A stretch of DNA of 64,000 nucleotides from IMG/VR virus record IMGVR_UViG_2529293038_000017, positions 1 through 64,000 of that record; one strand, given 5' to 3'. Numbering within the stretch: position 1 is the stretch's first letter; each line of letters begins with the position of its first letter. The translations under genes and the position numbers were made by a program. Positions 31,945-44,335 of this stretch are shown in pieces. Under the pieces are notes generated by a model that ran no database searches, was not told the origin of the DNA, and saw nothing but the letters and a program-made list of their open reading frames with translations. The stretch is from a virus. Taxonomy: Duplodnaviria; Heunggongvirae; Uroviricota; Caudoviricetes.

Positions 31945-33374
31945 TCCTCCTCATACGAAATATTAAAGGTGGAGTTTTCTGTATCCAGATAAACGAAATC
32001 GTAAAAGCCGTTGGACTCATTCCACTCGACAAATTCCAGATAAAAGTCGCGGAAATAACCCAGCGTTTCGATAAATGCCCAAACGTCTTTTTTCTTGATT
32101 AGGATGTACTTGCCGACACGGTTCGGATCAAAGAAAGTTGAGTCACGCCCAAATTTTGTTTCCAGTGCCGACTTCAGCTCATCAGTCACGTTCTCAATGG
32201 TCAGGCTTGCCGATATCCGCCCAGTGATAGTGATCTTAAAGGGGAGTTTTCTGACCTCTTTATACGAGAATTTCTTGTTCAACTCATTCGGCACCTTCTT
32301 AAAGGCAGCCAGGATCACTTCTTCAAGCTCTGACTGGCTTTTGTTTGGATGCCATCCTGAAATAAATATCTTATTGATATTCCGAACATTATAAGCACCA
32401 TCTAATTTCTCTTGCTGGCCTTCGCCCCATGCCTTTACCCAGGACAGTCCCGGGATGTTACGCACCAAAAAATACGTATAGTCCCCGCCCCATACGACCT
32501 GATCATCATAGGCAAGGTAATATTGTGCACGATTACGTGTGATCTCCGTTGTTTCGGCATCGGTACCTGCGGTTATGGGTGTCGTTGTCTTAACTGAAAT
32601 CAAATTAGCTAAATTAGCCGCAGAATCGACAGGCGTCAGGTTTTGGCCAGCAACCAGGGTTATATCTCCGTTGGTGCACCATACCTTAAGTGTAATGGTC
32701 GAGCCTTCTGGCGGTATTTGCCCAATTAGCCCATCACCGAATCGAACCCCCAACTGCTCGGATGGCTTATAAAACTCAACGTAGACCTGGCTTTTACTAC
32801 CGGCTAACCGGAACATAGTGCTGGAAGACCACTGCGTGGTCTTACCATCGGTCGTCACGAATACTTCCAGCTTATAGCAGACAGCAGTGAGAGCCTTTGA
32901 TAACACGACTTCCAGAAATTCTTTGGCTGCCGTAACGGTATATGTCACCTCCTGGATTTCCAACTGTGCCACTTCTACCGTACCGGTGCCGTCAACCAAC
33001 CTGCATACATCCATAGTCATGTAAGGGTACTGGTCGTCAGATATTAAAGGCATATTTTTGGGGATTACCGCTGGGGCATCTTCACTTGTGGCGGTGATCT
33101 CAATCATCCCCGATGACGGTGTTGGCTTGGTACCAACGTAACTATTCGTTTCTGCCGCTGCCAGGATAGAGGAACGCCGCGTCGCGGTCGATATAAAGCC
33201 TTCAGCCAGCGCCGCATCGGCATACTGAAAGCACCTGTAGACAATCTGGGTAATAAACAATGTCAGCATCGAGACAAATTGAGAGCCGACAAACTTCGAC
33301 CAGAATGAATCTTTCTCGACAAGCTCTTCAAACTCTGCACGAATACTGTCTTTAGTCGGTGTTGTTTTACTCAT
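31941..33374 (-). CDS. Baseplate protein (477 aa), bplA-like
   Basis: Size and position within the tail/baseplate operon; translationally coupled to neighbours. Confidence 0.6.
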   Translation of the reverse strand: MSKTTPTKDSIRAEFEELVEKDSFWSKFVGSQFVSMLTLFITQIVYRCFQYADAALAEGFISTATRRSSILAAAETNSYVGTKPTPSSGMIEITATSEDAPAVIPKNMPLISDDQYPYMTMDVCRLVDGTGTVEVAQLEIQEVTYTVTAAKEFLEVVLSKALTAVCYKLEVFVTTDGKTTQWSSSTMFRLAGSKSQVYVEFYKPSEQLGVRFGDGLIGQIPPEGSTITLKVWCTNGDITLVAGQNLTPVDSAANLANLISVKTTTPITAGTDAETTEITRNRAQYYLAYDDQVVWGGDYTYFLVRNIPGLSWVKAWGEGQQEKLDGAYNVRNINKIFISGWHPNKSQSELEEVILAAFKKVPNELNKKFSYKEVRKLPFKITITGRISASLTIENVTDELKSALETKFGRDSTFFDPNRVGKYILIKKKDVWAFIETLGYFRDFYLEFVEWNESNGFYDFVYLDTENSTFNISYEEE

Positions 33375-33730
33375 AGCACCACGTCCTGTGTGATAGTTAT
33401 ATCCCTGATACGAATGGATATTTTCAACTTATCAAAAGCATCTCCCTCGGCTACTGACAAGCCAGAAATCGGTATGTCAGGTAAATCTACCGTCAGTTTT
33501 TGCAACAGCATTGCCTCAACCGCAATTTGAACATGCGACAAGTTGGTCGGTTCGTGTTTAAACTGCGGTAAAACATTGCCCCATGACGGATCTCCGTATA
33601 CCTCACCCTGATAAGTGTTTAGCCACTCATATAAACGAGCGCCCCAGGCCTCCTCCTGGGACTCATACGTTTTTACGCCGGATAACTCCAGCGTCAGCAA
33701 AGGATCAATTTCGTTATTGTTGGCCATCAA
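33371..33730 (-). CDS. Small baseplate protein (119 aa), gpW/gp25-like
   Basis: Size and position immediately downstream of the Sit-like gene. Confidence 0.5.
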   Translation of the reverse strand: MMANNNEIDPLLTLELSGVKTYESQEEAWGARLYEWLNTYQGEVYGDPSWGNVLPQFKHEPTNLSHVQIAVEAMLLQKLTVDLPDIPISGLSVAEGDAFDKLKISIRIRDITITQDVVL

Positions 33731-36717
33731 TCAACTCTCGCGTAGTCATTCATCAACGGATCATCAATTGACAGTGGTACCGTGCGCATAACGCCCGGCT
33801 GAGGCGTGCTGACCTTTACGACAGTTCCCTGGCCTTTCGCCGAGTCTTTGGTGTGCTCTTCAATCCTGGCAAGCAATGAGGTCATCTGCGCAAACAGCCG
33901 CTTCGTTTCACCATCAAGTGAAACGGTATTATCAGCCAACTGCATTGTCGGCTTGGCACCGGAACCGCCAAGGTCACTAATAACCTGCCCGTCTATCTGC
34001 ATACGACCGGTTGGTTGCTGCAAATCGTTGGCGGCAGTCGTCACCTGGGACGTGGAGGCTGGTTCAGGCGCATTATTTTTCCGCATCCCCGGCGAGTTGC
34101 GGAGTTTATCGAATAGTCCATCAATCCCCATTTGTGCGCCGAGATGGTCAAAGTAACTTGAGTTGTTGGCCACCGGACGCGCCTCTTCAACTGGCATCGG
34201 AGTATCAACATACACATTGCCAGCTGCTGTTGCGGTCCCCTTCTCTCGTGCACGTTCTTCTAGCGTTCCCTGAACGACTTCCCGACGCATCCCCCGGCCA
34301 TTCATGAATTTGTTGACCAGATCGTTAACGCCAACAGCATTGCCGATTTTGTCGACCAGACCGCCTTTCTCAAACGGGCTATCACCAGGGGTAAACGCCA
34401 GGCCAGTATACTGATCGATAACAGCGTTATCAGGCAGTGGTCCCCTCACTCCATATTGCGCCCCACCCTGTGCTCCTGCTCCAGGTGTATAGATTTCACC
34501 ACCTAAATAGCGAGCACGATGAGTATTGACCTTGATCGCGTACTCACGGTTTTCTTTCGATAAGTCACCGGTGCCTTTTTTCCACTTATTAATAGTGCCA
34601 AACCCAGCATTATATGCAGTGATGGCCTCGTTTAAGTCTCCATTGGCTTGCTTAAGATACTTGCTCATGAGAAGAGCCGCAGCTTCTGCCGATTTCACAG
34701 GATCAAACGATTCACCTTCAGCTAAGCCAGTCTCTTCACGAGCAATCCCCGTGAACTGAAACATCCCCAGAGCACCGGTTTGGGATTTTGCATACGGATT
34801 ACCACCAGATTCAGTTGCAGCAATCGCGTAAAGAGTGCCTTCTGGAAGACCGTATTTATTCTCTAGTTCGGCAAAATACGGAGCCAACTTATCGAGATTT
34901 GCCTTACCTTCAGCGCCAAGACTTCCGACTTTTACATCTAAGTTGCCATTGTTGTAAGTATCCGCAGCTTTCTGAATGTCATTCCTGGTGCCAGTGGTAT
35001 TAAGCGACGATGATGACGAGCTATTTTGACCAATAGCTTTATCAATTTTCTGCAACGCGCTATTGCCCGTTTCTACGGCATTTGCATTGATAATCTGATT
35101 GGCAGTTTGTTTAACTGTTTTATTGCTATCTTTCGCTGTGTCCAGTGCCGCATTTATCACGCGGGTAGCAATATTACTCTGTTTGGCATCGGATTCAGTT
35201 TTAGAATCAGACGTCTCCTGGTGGCTATTAACCGGAGCTTTTAACTCCGGAGTGATTTCTTTCGCATTAGCCTCGCCGATCGGATTGGGTATTTTTGATA
35301 CAATCATTGCCGCAGGGGTATTTTTAACGGCATCAACCGCTGCATCTAATGCTTTACCAGGTAAATTTTTAACCCCATCCCAAATATTACCAGCCGCCTC
35401 TTTAATGTGTTTCCCTGGGTTCTTAATGAAATCAATTGCACTATCAATTGCATCACTGAAAACCTGTTTCAGGTTATCAACAGTAAAGAAGTCTTTGATG
35501 GCATCCAGCTTTTCAAGCAGCTTATTAGATGTATCGCTAAACCATGCTGAAACAGCATCACCAATCTTTGCTGTGTAATCTTCGAACTTGGTAGAAATGG
35601 TGTCGCCAAGGTTAGAAATATATGTTTCTAAGTTGGTAATCCCACTATCAATGGCCTGGGCAATACTTTCCGTCGAAAATGATTGCAACATATTGCCGAT
35701 ATCCTCAAATCCAAGTGATTTGAGAACCTCACCAATGGCGCTGCTAATACCAGATACCAGTCCCCCCATATCAAGAACATTGGCTAACGTATAAGCGGCT
35801 TTTTGCTGGAATGATGGCTCTTGTCCTGATTTAAGCCCAAACGCTCGACGTTGCGCTTCTGTATCATTCCAACCGGTTACCGCATCATAAATACCTCCAG
35901 CCACTGTGCCGACTAAGGGAATTGCGCGTAACGCCCCTTTACCAACTGCCTTTAATCCAAATTTACCTGCTGCCCGGGCAGCCAAATCTCCACCTTCATG
36001 GGCGATAGTCTTCTTGCCACCACCGCGTAGCATTCCTACAAGTTTCTTTGCCCCCAGAGCGCCAAAAGCGAGTGCTCCAGCTTTTTTCAGCATGCCACGC
36101 CCCATTAACAACGACGCGACGCCACCGGCCCCCTTCCCTAACAGGCTAAATAGTTTGGACAGCAAGCCGCCCTTCTTTTTCCCGGTGTTTTTGGCTATCT
36201 GATCAAGGGCGCTGAGAATCTTGTCATTGCCCTCTTTAATTTCGCTGGTCTGCTCCTGAAGTTCCTGAACCGTCCGTTTTTGGGTGTTAACCTGAACGAC
36301 ATCGGCACTATTTTGCGATTTACGCCTAAAAAAACCTTTTCTACGGCTGTTATCGTCATTGCCACGAATCACATCGGCAATAGACTTTCTGGCGCCATTA
36401 AGCGATCCACCAACTTCTTTTGATATCCCGCCAAGCTCCTTCCCTGCTGCCCACAATGGACCAGCAACGGCATAACCTAACGCATCGACGGCACGAGTCT
36501 CTGAAGGGTTACCTATGCCTTCAGCTACTTTTGACAGTTTTTTTAATAAACCTGATTCAGCATTTAGACGCTCATCATCCTCTTTGCGCCTGGCCTTTTC
36601 AGCACGTTCAGCACGGGCATCTTCCGCTGCGGCCTTACTCCCTGACTTTCCAATAAAACGACCACGCGCATCGCGTTGGTTTTGGCTTTTTTGCGCACCG
36701 CCTTTTTGATCGAACAT
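33727..36717 (-). CDS. sit: Sit-like tape-measure / structural injection transglycosylase (996 aa as annotated)
   Basis: Lytic transglycosylase motif (AIAATESGGNPYAKSQTGALGMFQF), Gly/Ala/Lys-rich low-complexity regions, no Shine-Dalgarno at the annotated ATG. Confidence 0.75.
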   Translation of the reverse strand: MFDQKGGAQKSQNQRDARGRFIGKSGSKAAAEDARAERAEKARRKEDDERLNAESGLLKKLSKVAEGIGNPSETRAVDALGYAVAGPLWAAGKELGGISKEVGGSLNGARKSIADVIRGNDDNSRRKGFFRRKSQNSADVVQVNTQKRTVQELQEQTSEIKEGNDKILSALDQIAKNTGKKKGGLLSKLFSLLGKGAGGVASLLMGRGMLKKAGALAFGALGAKKLVGMLRGGGKKTIAHEGGDLAARAAGKFGLKAVGKGALRAIPLVGTVAGGIYDAVTGWNDTEAQRRAFGLKSGQEPSFQQKAAYTLANVLDMGGLVSGISSAIGEVLKSLGFEDIGNMLQSFSTESIAQAIDSGITNLETYISNLGDTISTKFEDYTAKIGDAVSAWFSDTSNKLLEKLDAIKDFFTVDNLKQVFSDAIDSAIDFIKNPGKHIKEAAGNIWDGVKNLPGKALDAAVDAVKNTPAAMIVSKIPNPIGEANAKEITPELKAPVNSHQETSDSKTESDAKQSNIATRVINAALDTAKDSNKTVKQTANQIINANAVETGNSALQKIDKAIGQNSSSSSSLNTTGTRNDIQKAADTYNNGNLDVKVGSLGAEGKANLDKLAPYFAELENKYGLPEGTLYAIAATESGGNPYAKSQTGALGMFQFTGIAREETGLAEGESFDPVKSAEAAALLMSKYLKQANGDLNEAITAYNAGFGTINKWKKGTGDLSKENREYAIKVNTHRARYLGGEIYTPGAGAQGGAQYGVRGPLPDNAVIDQYTGLAFTPGDSPFEKGGLVDKIGNAVGVNDLVNKFMNGRGMRREVVQGTLEERAREKGTATAAGNVYVDTPMPVEEARPVANNSSYFDHLGAQMGIDGLFDKLRNSPGMRKNNAPEPASTSQVTTAANDLQQPTGRMQIDGQVISDLGGSGAKPTMQLADNTVSLDGETKRLFAQMTSLLARIEEHTKDSAKGQGTVVKVSTPQPGVMRTVPLSIDDPLMNDYARVD

Positions 36718-36755
36718 TTCGCGAGCGTGTTCGGCTGCTTCGGTCCGTTGTGCCT

Positions 36756-37415
36756 TTATATCCTCTGATATAGCCTTCCTGCGTCTTTTTTACCCTTTGG
36801 TGTAGTTGATTTGGCCTGCTGTTCCTGTTGAGCAATGCCCTCCTGAACTACACGAGAAACGTCCCCTAAATTAAGCCGTTTCATTGCGTCAACAATAGGG
36901 TCTACTGATGGCGCATTGGCCACAAAGTCTGGCCGGGAATTTTCGATTGTTCGATTTAATGCCGACACACTGCGAGATACTGGGTCAACCGTTGCAACGC
37001 GTTCCCCTTTCAAATCACGAGCGAGTTTGACCGTTTCTAACCGCTGTGCTTTAACATCCTCTGTTATTGCCTCTCTTCGTCTATTTGGGGGATTGTGCGC
37101 TGTTGGTGCAGCCTGCTGTTCACGGTTAGTGACTTTGTCCTCCCGTATACGAGAAACGTCCCCTAAATTAAGCCGTTTCATTGCGTCAACAATAGAGTCC
37201 ACTGATGGCACATTGGTCACAAAGTCAGGACGTGAATTTTCGATTGTGCGATTTAATGCCGACACACTGCGAGAGACAGGATCAACAGTTGCAACTCGTT
37301 CCCCTTTCAAATCTTCAACAGCTTCCCGAATACCTGCAAGCTCTTCCAGCTCTTTCGCGCTGGCGGTTTCAACTGTCCTTATAACATCGTCAATATTGGC
37401 GTTTTTTCTTTCCAT
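36756..37415 (-). CDS. Repeat-containing protein (219 aa) upstream of sit; possibly the N-terminal part of a frameshift-split sit gene
   Basis: Carries two copies of an approximately 80-aa repeat. Ends 38 bp upstream of the sit ATG in another frame; an A6 run lies at its 3' end. Confidence 0.55.
   Translation of the reverse strand: MERKNANIDDVIRTVETASAKELEELAGIREAVEDLKGERVATVDPVSRSVSALNRTIENSRPDFVTNVPSVDSIVDAMKRLNLGDVSRIREDKVTNREQQAAPTAHNPPNRRREAITEDVKAQRLETVKLARDLKGERVATVDPVSRSVSALNRTIENSRPDFVANAPSVDPIVDAMKRLNLGDVSRVVQEGIAQQEQQAKSTTPKGKKDAGRLYQRI
36810..37400. repeat. Tandem duplication, two copies of about 298 bp
   Basis: Copy cores 36851-37016 and 37149-37313 are about 90% identical. Confidence 0.8.
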
Positions 37416-37496
37416 GATCTTATCGCCTACCGTTTCGGTTTAAGTTTTTCTTCCAGTTTCTCCAACAGGAAAAACGCATAGGATTCAGTAAGCCTT

Positions 37497-38378
37497 TCAG
37501 CGTCCTGAATCGGTATACCCCCATACAAAACCAGGTTGGACACTAAGGTCTGATAGCTTTTCAATCCCCACCTGTGGAATGAAGTCGGTAGCCCGAAAGG
37601 GCACCCACAGACGGGTATACGCACCCTCTGTGGACTCCTTTGTATCCTGGTTTGGGCATTTGTGCGGCGGGAGACGAAGACGCATTTCGCCTTTATCGAT
37701 GTAGCACGGTAAACCATGTTCGAGCTTTTCATTAGCCAGCCGGATGTGTGCCGCCAGCTTCATAAATTCAGTATCAATGGCCATCCGTTTGATCGTTTCA
37801 TAACGACGCTCAGCCTGCTCTTCACGAGTACCGCTAACATCGTTATAAAGTTCACACTGATAAGCGAATTCCCAAAAACGCAAATCAACGATCGCTTCTT
37901 TGAATTCCGCGTCGTCTTCAGGTGGCAATGCTGCTCGGCGCATCTCCAGCATTTCCATTGCCCAACCATCAAGCGGCACGATACGCCATTGATAAGGCAC
38001 GCCCTCTACAGACACCTCAATATCGTCAATGAACGGTTCCACTTCCAGGACCTGGATATCTTCAGCCAGAGCATTCATATCGCAATCGTAATAATGCTCT
38101 TTACCGCAATGTTTACAGGTGTAGGTAAATGTCTCGATCGGTGTTTCGCGGGAGCCAGTAAATATCCACCATAACGCGGTAATCCGGTCCTGTGCCGTCC
38201 ATTTCAGTGGATCATGTTTCGCAGCTTCAGCCAGCAAGGCTTTTAAATACGCTGTTGTCTGCTGTTCTTGTTCCTCCGGTGTTATCGAGTTGAAACGCAT
38301 CGCATCAGCAATATTTGGCTGACGGAACTGGATTAATTCAGTTGGCCGCGATGGTAGCGGGAAAAGGGGTAAAAGCAT
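37497..38378 (-). CDS. Hypothetical tail-region protein (293 aa) with CxxC...C motif
   Basis: ATG at 38378 with AAGGAG Shine-Dalgarno; CKHCGKEHYYDC motif. Confidence 0.55.
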   Translation of the reverse strand: MLLPLFPLPSRPTELIQFRQPNIADAMRFNSITPEEQEQQTTAYLKALLAEAAKHDPLKWTAQDRITALWWIFTGSRETPIETFTYTCKHCGKEHYYDCDMNALAEDIQVLEVEPFIDDIEVSVEGVPYQWRIVPLDGWAMEMLEMRRAALPPEDDAEFKEAIVDLRFWEFAYQCELYNDVSGTREEQAERRYETIKRMAIDTEFMKLAAHIRLANEKLEHGLPCYIDKGEMRLRLPPHKCPNQDTKESTEGAYTRLWVPFRATDFIPQVGIEKLSDLSVQPGFVWGYTDSGR

Positions 38379-38392
38379 CCTTGCTCCTTAAT

Positions 38393-39004
38393 TTAAAGAG
38401 AAAAACTAAAGCCCAGAAGGGAAGCCAAAGAACTTGAGGATTGGTTAAACGTGCTGTGCAATGCGAAGGTCATTGGGAATGACTTAAATTCCGTGACCTG
38501 ATCCCGCGCATAGGTGACATCGCCGGTAGTAACCGGGAATACCGTCATCTCATTTTCCAGTTTGGTTAAACCGGAAGACAGCAACCGATAAATACGCACA
38601 TTGAGCAAATATTTAGACGGTATATTCCCAGTACCGTCCGGATTGATCACCCGACTTTTTGCCGTCTTAAACCAGTCCAAAACGAGGCCATCAACGGTAT
38701 CCCTGACCATCATTGTTATCTGCCCAGGCGAACGCTCCGTTGGTTGAAGGATATTCCCTCCGCCGATTTTAATCGTTTCATATTCGATGCTGTAATCGTG
38801 GTAGGTAATATCTTTGGCAAAGAAGTCTGCCCCCTCCAGTCCATCAACTTCGACAGAGAACTGCCATCCTTGCGCGAACAACATTTTGTTCATGATGATT
38901 GACGTCAGCTTACCAACTTCCCGCTCACCAACGCCGGAGCCAAATAATGTCGTCGTTAATGCCGAAGATACATAAGACTTTACTGAAGCAACATTAAGCC
39001 CCAT
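38393..39004 (-). CDS. Tail tube-like protein (203 aa)
   Basis: GAGGGAG Shine-Dalgarno. Size and position consistent with a tail tube gene; assignment is tentative. Confidence 0.5.
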   Translation of the reverse strand: MGLNVASVKSYVSSALTTTLFGSGVGEREVGKLTSIIMNKMLFAQGWQFSVEVDGLEGADFFAKDITYHDYSIEYETIKIGGGNILQPTERSPGQITMMVRDTVDGLVLDWFKTAKSRVINPDGTGNIPSKYLLNVRIYRLLSSGLTKLENEMTVFPVTTGDVTYARDQVTEFKSFPMTFALHSTFNQSSSSLASLLGFSFSL

Positions 39005-40815: not shown

Positions 40816-40910
40816 TATAACCTCACCTGCCTTATAACTCATTTAGGGTACATATTTTCGCCTTTAAAAAAAGAGGTTATTAGATCCAATTGTGTATTTA
40901 TTAAGCATAT

Positions 40911-42497: not shown

Positions 42498-42504
42498 CAA
42501 AAGA

Positions 42505-42535
42505 AAAAACCTGCCAGCAAACTGGCAGGTTTCTG
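42505..42535. terminator. Rho-independent terminator after ant
   Basis: AACCTGCCAG-CAAA-CTGGCAGGTT stem at 42508-42531. Confidence 0.6.
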
Positions 42536-43490: not shown

Positions 43491-44069
43491 ATGCTGGCTA
43501 AAGTCACTTTCCTGAGCTGTATAACGATGAGCGATTTTACTTTTTCTGGCTATGAATTGGCCTGCTTTGTAACACACTCCGGTCTATCCCGTAGCGCCGG
43601 GCATATCCTGTCGCAATGTGCAAATCTCGCGGCAACAACCAGTGAATACTTCATTCACAAGCCTCACCGCCTGATCGCGGCAGAAACTGGTTATAGCCAA
43701 TCAACCGTCGTTCGTGCATTCCGTGAAGCTGTAAACAAAGGAATTCTGTCTGTAGAGATTGTTATCGGCGATCACCGTGAACGTCGCGCTAACCTGTACC
43801 GGTTTACACCATCCTTTTTGGCCTTCGCACAACAAGCCAAAAATGCGCTGATTGAAAGCAAATTAAAGATCTCTTCAGCGGCAACCAAGGTTAAAGCTGT
43901 TCTCGCTAAGACATTGGCTTTATTTAATTTTTTATCCACACCCCCATGTCAAAATGATACCCCCTCCCCCTGTCAGGATGACGTGGCAATAAAGAATAAG
44001 AAGTCACAAGTTAAAAAACAAAAAGATCAGTTTCCGGCGGTGCCGGAACGACCAGACTCAAAAAATTGA
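43491..44069 (+). CDS. RepL-like lytic replication protein candidate (192 aa) with HTH
   Basis: Follows kilA as repL does in P1; HTH-like segment YSQSTVVRAFREAVNKGIL. Shorter than I recall for P1 RepL, so the call is tentative. Confidence 0.45.
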   Translation: MLAKVTFLSCITMSDFTFSGYELACFVTHSGLSRSAGHILSQCANLAATTSEYFIHKPHRLIAAETGYSQSTVVRAFREAVNKGILSVEIVIGDHRERRANLYRFTPSFLAFAQQAKNALIESKLKISSAATKVKAVLAKTLALFNFLSTPPCQNDTPSPCQDDVAIKNKKSQVKKQKDQFPAVPERPDSKN

Positions 44070-44335
44070 CTTCATGGATCGCTGAGGCAAAAGCAAAGGC
44101 TGACAATCTGCGGTTATCCAAAAAACGCGCTCAAAAACATGAGTTCAAGCAGAAAGTAGAGGCGGCAGCGCGGAAATATGCTTACCTGAAGAACAAGCGT
44201 TCTCCTGATATTGGCGGGGTATCAAACTTCGATAATCTGCCGCATTGCATGACGGTAAACGAAGCTCTTAATGCGGTTTTAGCCAAAAATAAAGATAACG
44301 AACAATGGGGTATACCGGCAGGATTCAGAGGGTGA
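44066..44335 (+). CDS. Hypothetical basic protein (89 aa)
   Basis: ORF overlapping the upstream stop. Confidence 0.4.
   Translation: MTSWIAEAKAKADNLRLSKKRAQKHEFKQKVEAAARKYAYLKNKRSPDIGGVSNFDNLPHCMTVNEALNAVLAKNKDNEQWGIPAGFRG

Follow-up and report, generated by a model that had tools for sequence, protein, structure and literature searches.

A one-base deletion at an A-run splits the tape-measure gene sit of a P1-like phage-plasmid, with a candidate +1 frameshift site one gene upstream in pmgB

The sit locus

We analyzed a 64,000-nt stretch of DNA (positions 1 to 64,000 of IMG/VR record IMGVR_UViG_2529293038_000017), referred to here as the window, which is a P1-like (Punavirus) phage-plasmid. 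It carries a member of the Sit family whose copy is disrupted, with the following features:

33727..37415, minus strand: sit, the P1-family tail tape-measure protein/structural injection transglycosylase; long two-repeat allele with a 1-nt deletion here
36756..37415, minus strand: 5' fragment of sit, a 219-aa ORF; residues 1-209 (through GKK) are authentic Sit N-terminus and the last 10 are out of frame
33727..36717, minus strand: 3' fragment of sit, a 996-aa ORF that begins at an internal ATG without a Shine-Dalgarno, its frame open from 36789
36786..36791, minus strand: A6 run with one base missing, based on alignments to relatives and allele counts
37102..37313, minus strand: core of repeat copy 1, the extra copy relative to P1 and P7
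36805..37016, minus strand: core of repeat copy 2, based on alignment to copy 1

The window sit is 96-97.5% identical at the nucleotide level to the annotated sit of JL22, P7 and P1, and the gene is a single CDS in the annotated records of these phages and of other relatives. The Sit-family match runs end to end across both window ORFs, with positions 1-134 of the phrog_2533 profile (length 1130) falling on the 219-aa ORF and positions 135-1130 on the 996-aa ORF. An SLT domain (Pfam PF01464, E = 7.5e-27) was found at residues 614-723 of the 996-aa ORF (~34549-34878), in the C-terminal third, and ORF order compared with the P1, P7 and JL22 annotation places sit between pmgB and pmgA-bplA, within the tail/baseplate operon. 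The Sit proteins of P1 (YP_006507.1, 1140 aa), P7 and JL22 (1130 aa) are tape-measure proteins with an SLT domain, which the window gene resembles in operon position, N-terminus, helical body and SLT domain; it differs from them by one more 99-aa N-terminal unit and by the 1-nt deletion that splits the ORF. A family trait, one uninterrupted ORF of ~1120-1250 codons, is therefore missing from the window sit, which is split at 36786-36791. The gene is required for plaque formation (PMC10695390).

A missing base at the A-run

The first-pass annotation, made from the letters alone, had described a 219-codon and a 996-codon ORF separated by 38 bp and had suggested that they represent one gene broken at an A-run. 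Both ORFs are present on the minus strand at that spacing, and the upstream one does read ...GGT AAA AAA GAC... (GGT at 36794-36792, A6 at 36791-36786) before stopping at a TAA (36758-36756) 10 codons past the run. The downstream ORF lies in the -1 frame of the upstream ORF; this frame is open from 36789 and closed just ahead of it by a TAA at 36792-36790. The reported lack of a Shine-Dalgarno also holds, as no GGAG, GAGG or AGGA occurs within the 20 nt (AGCAGCCGAACACGCTCGCGAA) that precede the ATG at 36717.

Comparison with relatives located the lesion precisely. The window reads GGTAAAAAAGACGC at the break, the closest relatives have A7 (AAAAAAAGACGC; AAA AAA AGA), and in P1, P7, JL22 and phi456 an A6 run precedes a C (AAA AAA CGA; AAAAAACGACGC in P1 and P7). 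Clean relatives have one more base exactly there together with a single ORF, as seen in P1, P7, JL22, phi456, NZ_CP027199 and NZ_CP020522, and the sit ORF is uninterrupted at every clean locus holding the whole gene. Inserting one A in silico yields a 1229-aa Sit that is identical to that of NZ_CP027199 over residues 1-459. As for the expectation that the two ORFs less one repeat copy would come close to P1 Sit, 1229 aa minus 99 aa gives 1130 aa, the length of Sit in P7 and JL22; P1 Sit has 1140 aa.

Across the 2.3-kb 5' part of sit, the nearest relative differs by only 5 mismatches and one gap, the A-run itself. The sit of NZ_CP027199, 99.7% identical to that of the window over the first 2.3 kb, has A7 instead of A6 plus a 51-nt (17-aa) insertion further downstream. 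The deleted form was not found in 72,556 plasmids, 5,426 E. coli genomes, IMG/VR, metagenome contigs or GTDB species-representative genome contigs. None of 184 plasmid and 223 E. coli records matched a 101-nt query over the break without a gap, the best matches all spanning 102 nt, and the exact deleted 27-mer had 0 matches in IMG/VR, metagenome contigs and species-representative genome contigs; the intact form occurs in 30 IMG/VR contigs. Four substitutions in the window sit are absent from ~30 relatives and 3 of the 4 fall at third codon positions, indicating a gene without further decay.

The N-terminal repeat

A tandem duplication of 298 bp at about 90% identity had also been noted in the upstream ORF. 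The duplication is real, but it repeats every 297 nt, an in-frame unit of 99 codons, and the high identity does not extend over the whole unit: a conserved core of 180-212 nt aligns ungapped at 84-88% (37313-37102 versus 37016-36805) and the remainder of the unit has diverged. After frame repair, 70 of 99 residues are alike between copies. The 297-nt repeat was recovered by repeat search and alignment; Tandem Repeats Finder reported no repeat in 33000-38500.

In clean assemblies, Sit is 1120-1142 aa long with one 99-aa unit and 1225-1249 aa long with two. The long form is encoded by phi456 (WNL49372.1, 1231 aa) and by E. coli plasmids such as NZ_CP027199 (WP_100728219.1, 1246 aa), both of which share the two-copy repeat with the window and have an uninterrupted gene. 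The repeat is a length allele of the tape-measure N-terminus; it is common, keeps the reading frame, is intact elsewhere and has no bearing on the break. With ~99 additional residues, the two-copy unit offers a simple test of whether the N-terminal region counts toward tail length.

Origin of the split

A similar lesion was found on the opposite strand, 7 kb from the one in sit:

43491..44335, plus strand: repL, lytic replication initiator; an A7 to A6 change at 44013-44018 breaks it into ORFs of 192 aa and 89 aa

Intact RepL in relatives is 281 aa long. None of 518 complete E. coli genome records and none of 21 phage records carry the repL A7 to A6 change, and its one other carrier is a 97%-identical draft contig that has a further T5 to T4 loss. 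This second loss of the same kind favors an artifact as the source of the sit split. The record is not grossly error-ridden, since 9 of 13 A/T runs of at least 7 nt have the reference length when aligned to NZ_CP027199. Of the 4 that differ, 2 intergenic A-runs (40866 and 42504) are polymorphic in other sequences; these 2 are ordinary population polymorphisms and not further evidence of error. A globally error-ridden assembly was not supported. A frame change in mat near 2810 was also discarded as an error candidate, its G4/G5 allele being shared with other sequences. As a separate observation, which speaks against an artifact, P1-like plasmids often have genuinely inactivated structural or lytic genes, examples being sit or pmgB disrupted by an IS and a repL that has been lost (PMC6906374).

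Because the lesion appears in no related sequence, the split is an ordinary mutation or a sequencing error rather than a programmed frameshift. Mutation or sequencing error was one of the three explanations offered originally, and it is the one that the extra base in all clean relatives and the absence of the deleted form from every searched collection support. Our main reading, to which we assign a probability of roughly 60%, is that sit is one gene and that the base was lost without any program, most likely as a homopolymer under-call in the sequence record. In the record, a single base is gone at the 3' edge of the homopolymer (A7 to A6 relative to the closest relatives), so that translation from the true start at 37415 meets a TAA after 219 codons. 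The other 1020 codons lie in the -1 frame, where ORF finding does not catch them until an internal ATG. What we observed directly is the lesion, the lack of it elsewhere and the single intact ORF of relatives; the choice of error over mutation is our inference.

A close second, and the less probable of the two, is a real and very recent replication-slippage mutation that left the prophage-plasmid tail-defective and persisting only as a plasmid; it would then have no functional tape-measure protein and, given the repL lesion, no lytic replication. The lesion type belongs to the classic slippage spectrum, lytic and structural functions are frequently lost in P1-like plasmids (PMC6906374), and loss of a gene essential for plaque formation would be tolerated, though not selected, in the plasmid lifestyle. 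The few substitutions peculiar to the window lineage also indicate that it has diverged to some real extent. However, the sit and repL lesions occur in no complete-genome record, a real event would require two identical-type losses in two essential lytic genes, and no other decay (nonsense mutations, IS elements or deletions) was found in sit and repL. Moreover, the repL lesion recurs only in an older draft contig, which has lost a base at another homopolymer as well. A genuine pair of genes, one for an N-terminal protein of 219 aa and one for a 996-aa transglycosylase with its own start, is barely credible and already contradicted by comparative data, because the relatives all encode one ORF and do not share the two-ORF layout. 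RefSeq does start the long allele of NZ_CP020522 at the ATG equivalent to 36717, but the record retains an uninterrupted 1246-aa ORF. Neither a Shine-Dalgarno nor a promoter-like site precedes ATG 36717, the 219-aa ORF ends in 10 out-of-frame codons that have no counterpart in any Sit, and Sit in P1 virions is listed at 120.6 kDa (PMC9024508).

Recoding at the A-run, programmed or adventitious, could restore full-length Sit from the split gene through a -1 slip of tRNA-Lys on AAA (36788-36786) or an extra A added by RNA polymerase, and we consider this very improbable. In favor of recoding, the open stretch of the -1 frame begins within the run, one tRNA slipping on A6 would re-pair perfectly, and the slip and the added A alike would regenerate the parental peptide GKKRRRK exactly; 'savior' correction of indels by frameshifting is known (PMC5009743). 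Against this, the allele was found nowhere else and the arrangement is not conserved. With a zero frame of GGU AAA AAA GAC, the efficient A AAA AAG heptamer is offset by one and out of phase; no slippery heptamer X XXY YYZ is in phase, the in-phase reading being U AAA AAA, which mismatches in the P site. The letters AAAAAAG and an open -1 frame are shared with dnaX- and IS-type -1 sites, but unlike those sites the A-run is out of phase, not conserved and without stimulators. The next zero-frame codon, GAC, is common. Upstream, an AAGGG is just 1-2 nt away from the run, a spacing that favors +1 over -1 shifts (cf. prfB, dnaX), and no stimulatory structure was evident in the fold of 36690-36800 (-18.3 kcal/mol, z = +0.64 versus shuffles). 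Efficient transcriptional slippage in E. coli requires A/T runs of ~9 or more, and 6 A fall short of this. Recoding here would yield a trace of product at best.

The split matters only for annotation and quality control: both ORFs should be annotated as one disrupted or repairable sit, and repL likewise. Whether the element is inducible as a phage should not be judged before both A-runs have been re-sequenced.

A candidate +1 frameshift site in pmgB

The earlier suggestion of slippage as seen for tail chaperones was not supported at the sit A-run, but a candidate for it, in the +1 direction, lies one gene upstream:

37497..38378, minus strand: pmgB, proposed tape-measure chaperone, directly upstream of sit; frame-0 product of 293 aa
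37593..37598, minus strand: TTT CGG, candidate +1 frameshift site at pmgB codons 261-262
37427..37597, minus strand: pmgB extension in the +1 frame, 56 codons followed by a stop (FGLPTSFHRWGLK...EKLEEKLKPKR)

The extension takes up the 81-nt pmgB-sit 'spacer', stopping 11 nt short of the sit ATG. At the codon level, TTT CGG does not vary in any of 14 lineages, whereas 2-5 synonymous codons are found for each of the other 29 degenerate residues that are invariant. In a 105-nt gapless alignment of 12 sequences, no 6-nt block other than TTT CGG is fully invariant. Together with its flanking context, TTT CGG is kept in 82 of 83 close relatives. Downstream of the site, the +1 frame stays open for 53-59 codons in all 14 lineages and, at loci where a next long ORF was found, ends between 4 nt inside and 15 nt before it. 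The extension peptides align without gaps and share a conserved NL.LYG..P motif; differences past the frame-0 stop number 1071/781/1562 by codon position. In most lineages, pmgB is followed directly by sit or a sit homolog, with an extra ORF or a gap between them in L049/L136 and L050. The signal is kept in P1-like elements from Escherichia, Cronobacter, Pantoea, Citrobacter, Buttiauxella, Serratia, Xenorhabdus, Chimaeribacter and Aeromonas.

The required shift is +1, the -1 frame at the site closing within 2-18 codons, and in 3 lineages a +1-frame stop precedes the site by 1-2 codons. A separate start for the +1 ORF was rejected because no ATG, GTG or TTG lies upstream in frame in 5 lineages. 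A -2 slip on a G5 run (GTATGGGGGTAT, ~37517-37527) was dropped as well: frame 0 stops upstream of the run in divergent homologs, and the invariant element is TTT CGG. No conserved RNA structure was found near the site.

Judging from these conservation patterns, it is likely that pmgB contains a programmed frameshift of the tail-chaperone type, with a +1 shift at UUU CGG (37598-37593). During a pause with CGG in the A site, peptidyl-tRNA-Phe would exchange its pairing with UUU for one with UUC. The predicted product is a 316-aa PmgB that contains the junction peptide LWVPFGLPTSFHR and whose alternative tail, conserved and 55 residues long, is encoded by the 81-nt 'spacer'. The signal is unannotated in every P1-family record examined and not mentioned in the searchable literature, although prior notice in Xu et al. 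2004 is possible.

Several properties of pmgB recall lambda G/GT. It adjoins the tape-measure gene on the upstream side, its deletion abolishes tails while the protein is undetected in virions (PMC9024508), and a conserved alternative-frame C-terminal extension behind an invariant shift hexamer ends at the tape-measure start. Unlike in lambda, the shift would be +1 at UUU CGG and not -1 at X XXY YYZ, which resembles the CUU AGG logic of Ty1; a -2 variant (Mu) and +1 variants of the tail-chaperone frameshift are known in other phages (PMC5009743). If the prediction is true, the signal represents P1's missing counterpart of the lambda G/GT frameshift and exemplifies a Ty1-like +1 site in bacteria; pmgB complementation constructs would then have to contain the downstream 'spacer'. 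PmgB shows weak fold similarity to tail assembly chaperones; a Foldseek search of the PmgB model against the PDB returned no match. PmgB (~270-300 aa) is larger than typical tail chaperones, and its two predicted products differ by tails of 9-36 aa versus 52-58 aa after Phe-261, with no long T domain as in G/GT.

The break in sit

The sequence does show a split in sit, but an unremarkable one: a one-base homopolymer loss breaks this familiar gene, here in its known long allele. The DNA belongs to a P1-like (Punavirus) phage-plasmid, and positions 33700-37500 of the window share 96-97.5% identity with sit and its surroundings in phages JL22, P7, RCS47 and P1. Sit is the P1 tape-measure protein, mainly helical in its N-terminal two-thirds and carrying an SLT domain, and is found in P1 virions, where it is listed at 120.6 kDa (PMC9024508); CRISPRi knock-down of the gene abolishes plaque formation (PMC10695390). 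The records of P1 (1140 aa), P7 and JL22 (1130 aa each) hold sit as one CDS between pmgB and pmgA. In the window the gene is divided as follows:

36756-37415, minus strand, 219-aa ORF (positions 1-134 of the phrog_2533 profile)
33727-36717, minus strand, 996-aa ORF (profile positions 135-1130, head to tail with the former; contains the SLT domain)

The first-pass annotation had described these two ORFs, the 38-bp gap between them, the GGT AAA AAA GAC context of the A-run, the lack of a Shine-Dalgarno before the 996-aa ORF and an open -1 frame, all of which we confirmed in the sequence. The window has GGTAAAAAAGACGC at 36786-36791; P1, P7, JL22 and phi456 have GGTAAAAAACGACGC, and the closest relatives have GGTAAAAAAAGACGC, where the run is A7 and codon AGA stands in place of CGA (arginine either way). 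The window's run is thus one base short at its 3' edge (A7 to A6 compared with its nearest kin). Plasmid NZ_CP027199, the nearest relative, differs from the window's sit by 5 mismatches in 2.3 kb, a comparison that revealed no further lesion. With one A put back, the window encodes a Sit of 1229 aa whose residues 1-459 are the same as in the NZ_CP027199 protein. Three of the four sit substitutions missing from ~30 relatives lie at third codon positions; judged from these sequences, the gene is under purifying selection or was until very recently.

The loss is unique to this record. A 101-nt query across the break matched 184 records from plasmids and 223 from E. coli, never without a gap, the best matches all spanning 102 nt, and the exact 27-mer with the deletion had no match in IMG/VR, metagenome contigs or species-representative genome contigs; the intact form occurs in 30 IMG/VR contigs. 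Among the related loci examined, sit is uninterrupted in every clean assembly that covers it completely, the exceptions being three visibly noisy assemblies with many gaps. Many single-base gaps, with sit in several ORFs, were seen in related loci L005, L006, L009 and L023 (vB_EcoM-673R5, vB_EcoM-813R1, CP088429.1 and one IMG/VR contig), which look like uncorrected long-read assemblies and are unfit as evidence for a split gene.

Length alleles of sit

The tandem duplication reported in the first pass stands, although its period is 297 nt, in frame, rather than 298 bp, and the ~90% identity gives way to 84-88% between copies over a core of 180-212 nt, with a diverged linker. After frame repair the two units match at 70 of 99 residues. 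Compared with P1, P7 and JL22, the duplication is a clean 297-nt insertion; the same two-copy form is found in phi456, with an intact 1231-aa Sit, and in plasmids NZ_CP027199 and NZ_CP020522, with an intact 1246-aa ORF. Across the related loci, one-copy (1120-1142 aa) and two-copy (1225-1249 aa) alleles are both common. The two-copy repeat is therefore a normal allele and, since both forms are uninterrupted in clean whole-gene assemblies, it is unconnected with the break.

The 99-aa N-terminal unit (window 36805-37313) is thus polymorphic, in one or two copies, and a 51-nt (17-aa) indel lies further downstream among P1-like elements. If the N-terminal region is part of the ruler, these length alleles predict different tail lengths. 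The current RefSeq annotation of NZ_CP020522.1 (L010; 3431-7171) begins the intact long-allele sit at an internal ATG (residue 234), the same one that starts the window's 996-aa ORF, as other RefSeq records likewise do. The N-terminal coding part, ~700 nt that are open and conserved, thereby goes without annotation; the full 1246-aa CDS is present in the older PLSDB annotation of those plasmids.

Error, mutation or recoding

Of the explanations proposed in the first pass, a two-gene arrangement fails on the relatives, named beforehand as the arbiter, which lack the two-ORF layout; nothing resembling a promoter was found ahead of the internal ATG that opens the 996-aa ORF. Because the layout is not shared, there is likewise no support for a maintained recoding site, and programmed slippage is further contradicted by a heptamer out of phase and by the lack of downstream structure (fold -18.3 kcal/mol, z = +0.64). 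A AAA AAG is an efficient bacterial -1 heptamer; its letters are present in sit, out of phase with the incoming GGU AAA AAA GAC. In principle GKKRRRK could be regenerated if one tRNA slipped or if transcription added an A, but such adventitious leakiness is very improbable.

A frameshift mutation or sequencing error, the remaining proposal, is upheld. When reference ORFs were compared with the window, just one other gene was broken like sit, falling into 192-aa and 89-aa ORFs:

43491-44335, plus strand, repL (lytic replication initiator), A7-to-A6 loss in the A-run at 44013-44018

Neither the 518 records of complete E. coli genomes nor the 21 phage records show this repL loss. It is carried by L042, an IMG/VR draft contig only ~97% identical to the window that has an additional T5-to-T4 loss, and the profile lengths of PHROGs families phrog_8046 and phrog_7057 fit the two halves. 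Identical homopolymer losses in two essential lytic genes, unseen in finished genomes and with no other decay, lead us to favour, with a probability of about 0.58, a sequencing under-call. The serious rival, with a substantial minority chance, is a genuine slippage mutation of recent date: P1-like plasmids do shed lytic functions (PMC6906374), and the window is not error-ridden, with 9 of 13 long A/T runs at reference length and two intergenic A-run differences that are ordinary polymorphisms. Those two runs (40866-40872 and 42504-42509) are one base short of NZ_CP027199, and other P1-like sequences include examples of either length. In mat (~2790-2832), where the start region is shifted, NZ_CP027199 has G4 just as the window does, versus G5 in phi456; this is a population allele, not window-specific.

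A candidate +1 frameshift in pmgB

Read in the +1 frame of pmgB, the 81-nt 'spacer' that runs from that gene's stop (37497) to the ATG of sit (37415) has the look of coding sequence:

37427-37598, minus strand, candidate pmgB frameshift site and extension (homologous sites at related loci L046-L050 and L134-L144)

We gathered pmgB homologues (36-76% protein identity) from Cronobacter, Pantoea, Citrobacter, Buttiauxella, Serratia, Xenorhabdus, Chimaeribacter, Aeromonas and others. All 14 lineages compared use the very codons TTT CGG for Phe261-Arg262, and a gapless alignment of 105 nt has no other 6-nt block without variation. Each of the 29 other invariant residues with degenerate codons is encoded by 2-5 synonymous codons. 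Frame 0 ends 8-35 codons past CGG at variable positions, with unrelated tails. The +1 frame is open for 53-59 codons from the site in every lineage, and where a next long ORF was found, it ends between 15 nt ahead of that ORF and 4 nt within it, and its peptides align without gaps (common pattern FG[ILV]..[ST]F...W..[IL][IV].NL.LYG..P......L.EK). Past the frame-0 stop, differences at codon positions 1, 2 and 3 number 1071, 781 and 1562, the third varying most. Separate initiation of the +1 ORF was excluded by missing start codons (no upstream ATG, GTG or TTG in 5 of 14 lineages) and by +1-frame stops just 1-2 codons before TTC in 3 of 14; together these confine the shift to a ~10-codon window. 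The Xenorhabdus bovienii record gives its homologue a 943-nt range (3n+1), which fits a +1 join.

From this conservation, pmgB likely carries a tail-chaperone-type +1 programmed frameshift at TTT CGG. With the A site awaiting CGG, a codon read by a minor tRNA in E. coli, peptidyl-tRNA-Phe would slip off UUU and onto UUC, which overlaps it, in a logic resembling CUU AGG of Ty1. The alignment of pmgB sequences revealed no conserved RNA structure at the site. Tail chaperone genes are known with frameshifts of -1, -2 and +1 (PMC5009743). Our literature search found no paper tying pmgB to a frameshift, and an earlier notice in Xu et al. 2004 is possible. The extension lacks annotation in P1, P7, JL22, SJ46 and those RefSeq plasmid records that we examined; in phi456 and JK004 the annotation of the 'spacer' is limited to a small separate ORF.

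PmgB homologues also share invariant C88, C91, H95 and C241, the first three in a C-x2-C-x3-H context (window 37497-38378; residues 88-100 and 241), which suggests a candidate metal-binding site; such a site would be unusual for a tail assembly chaperone.
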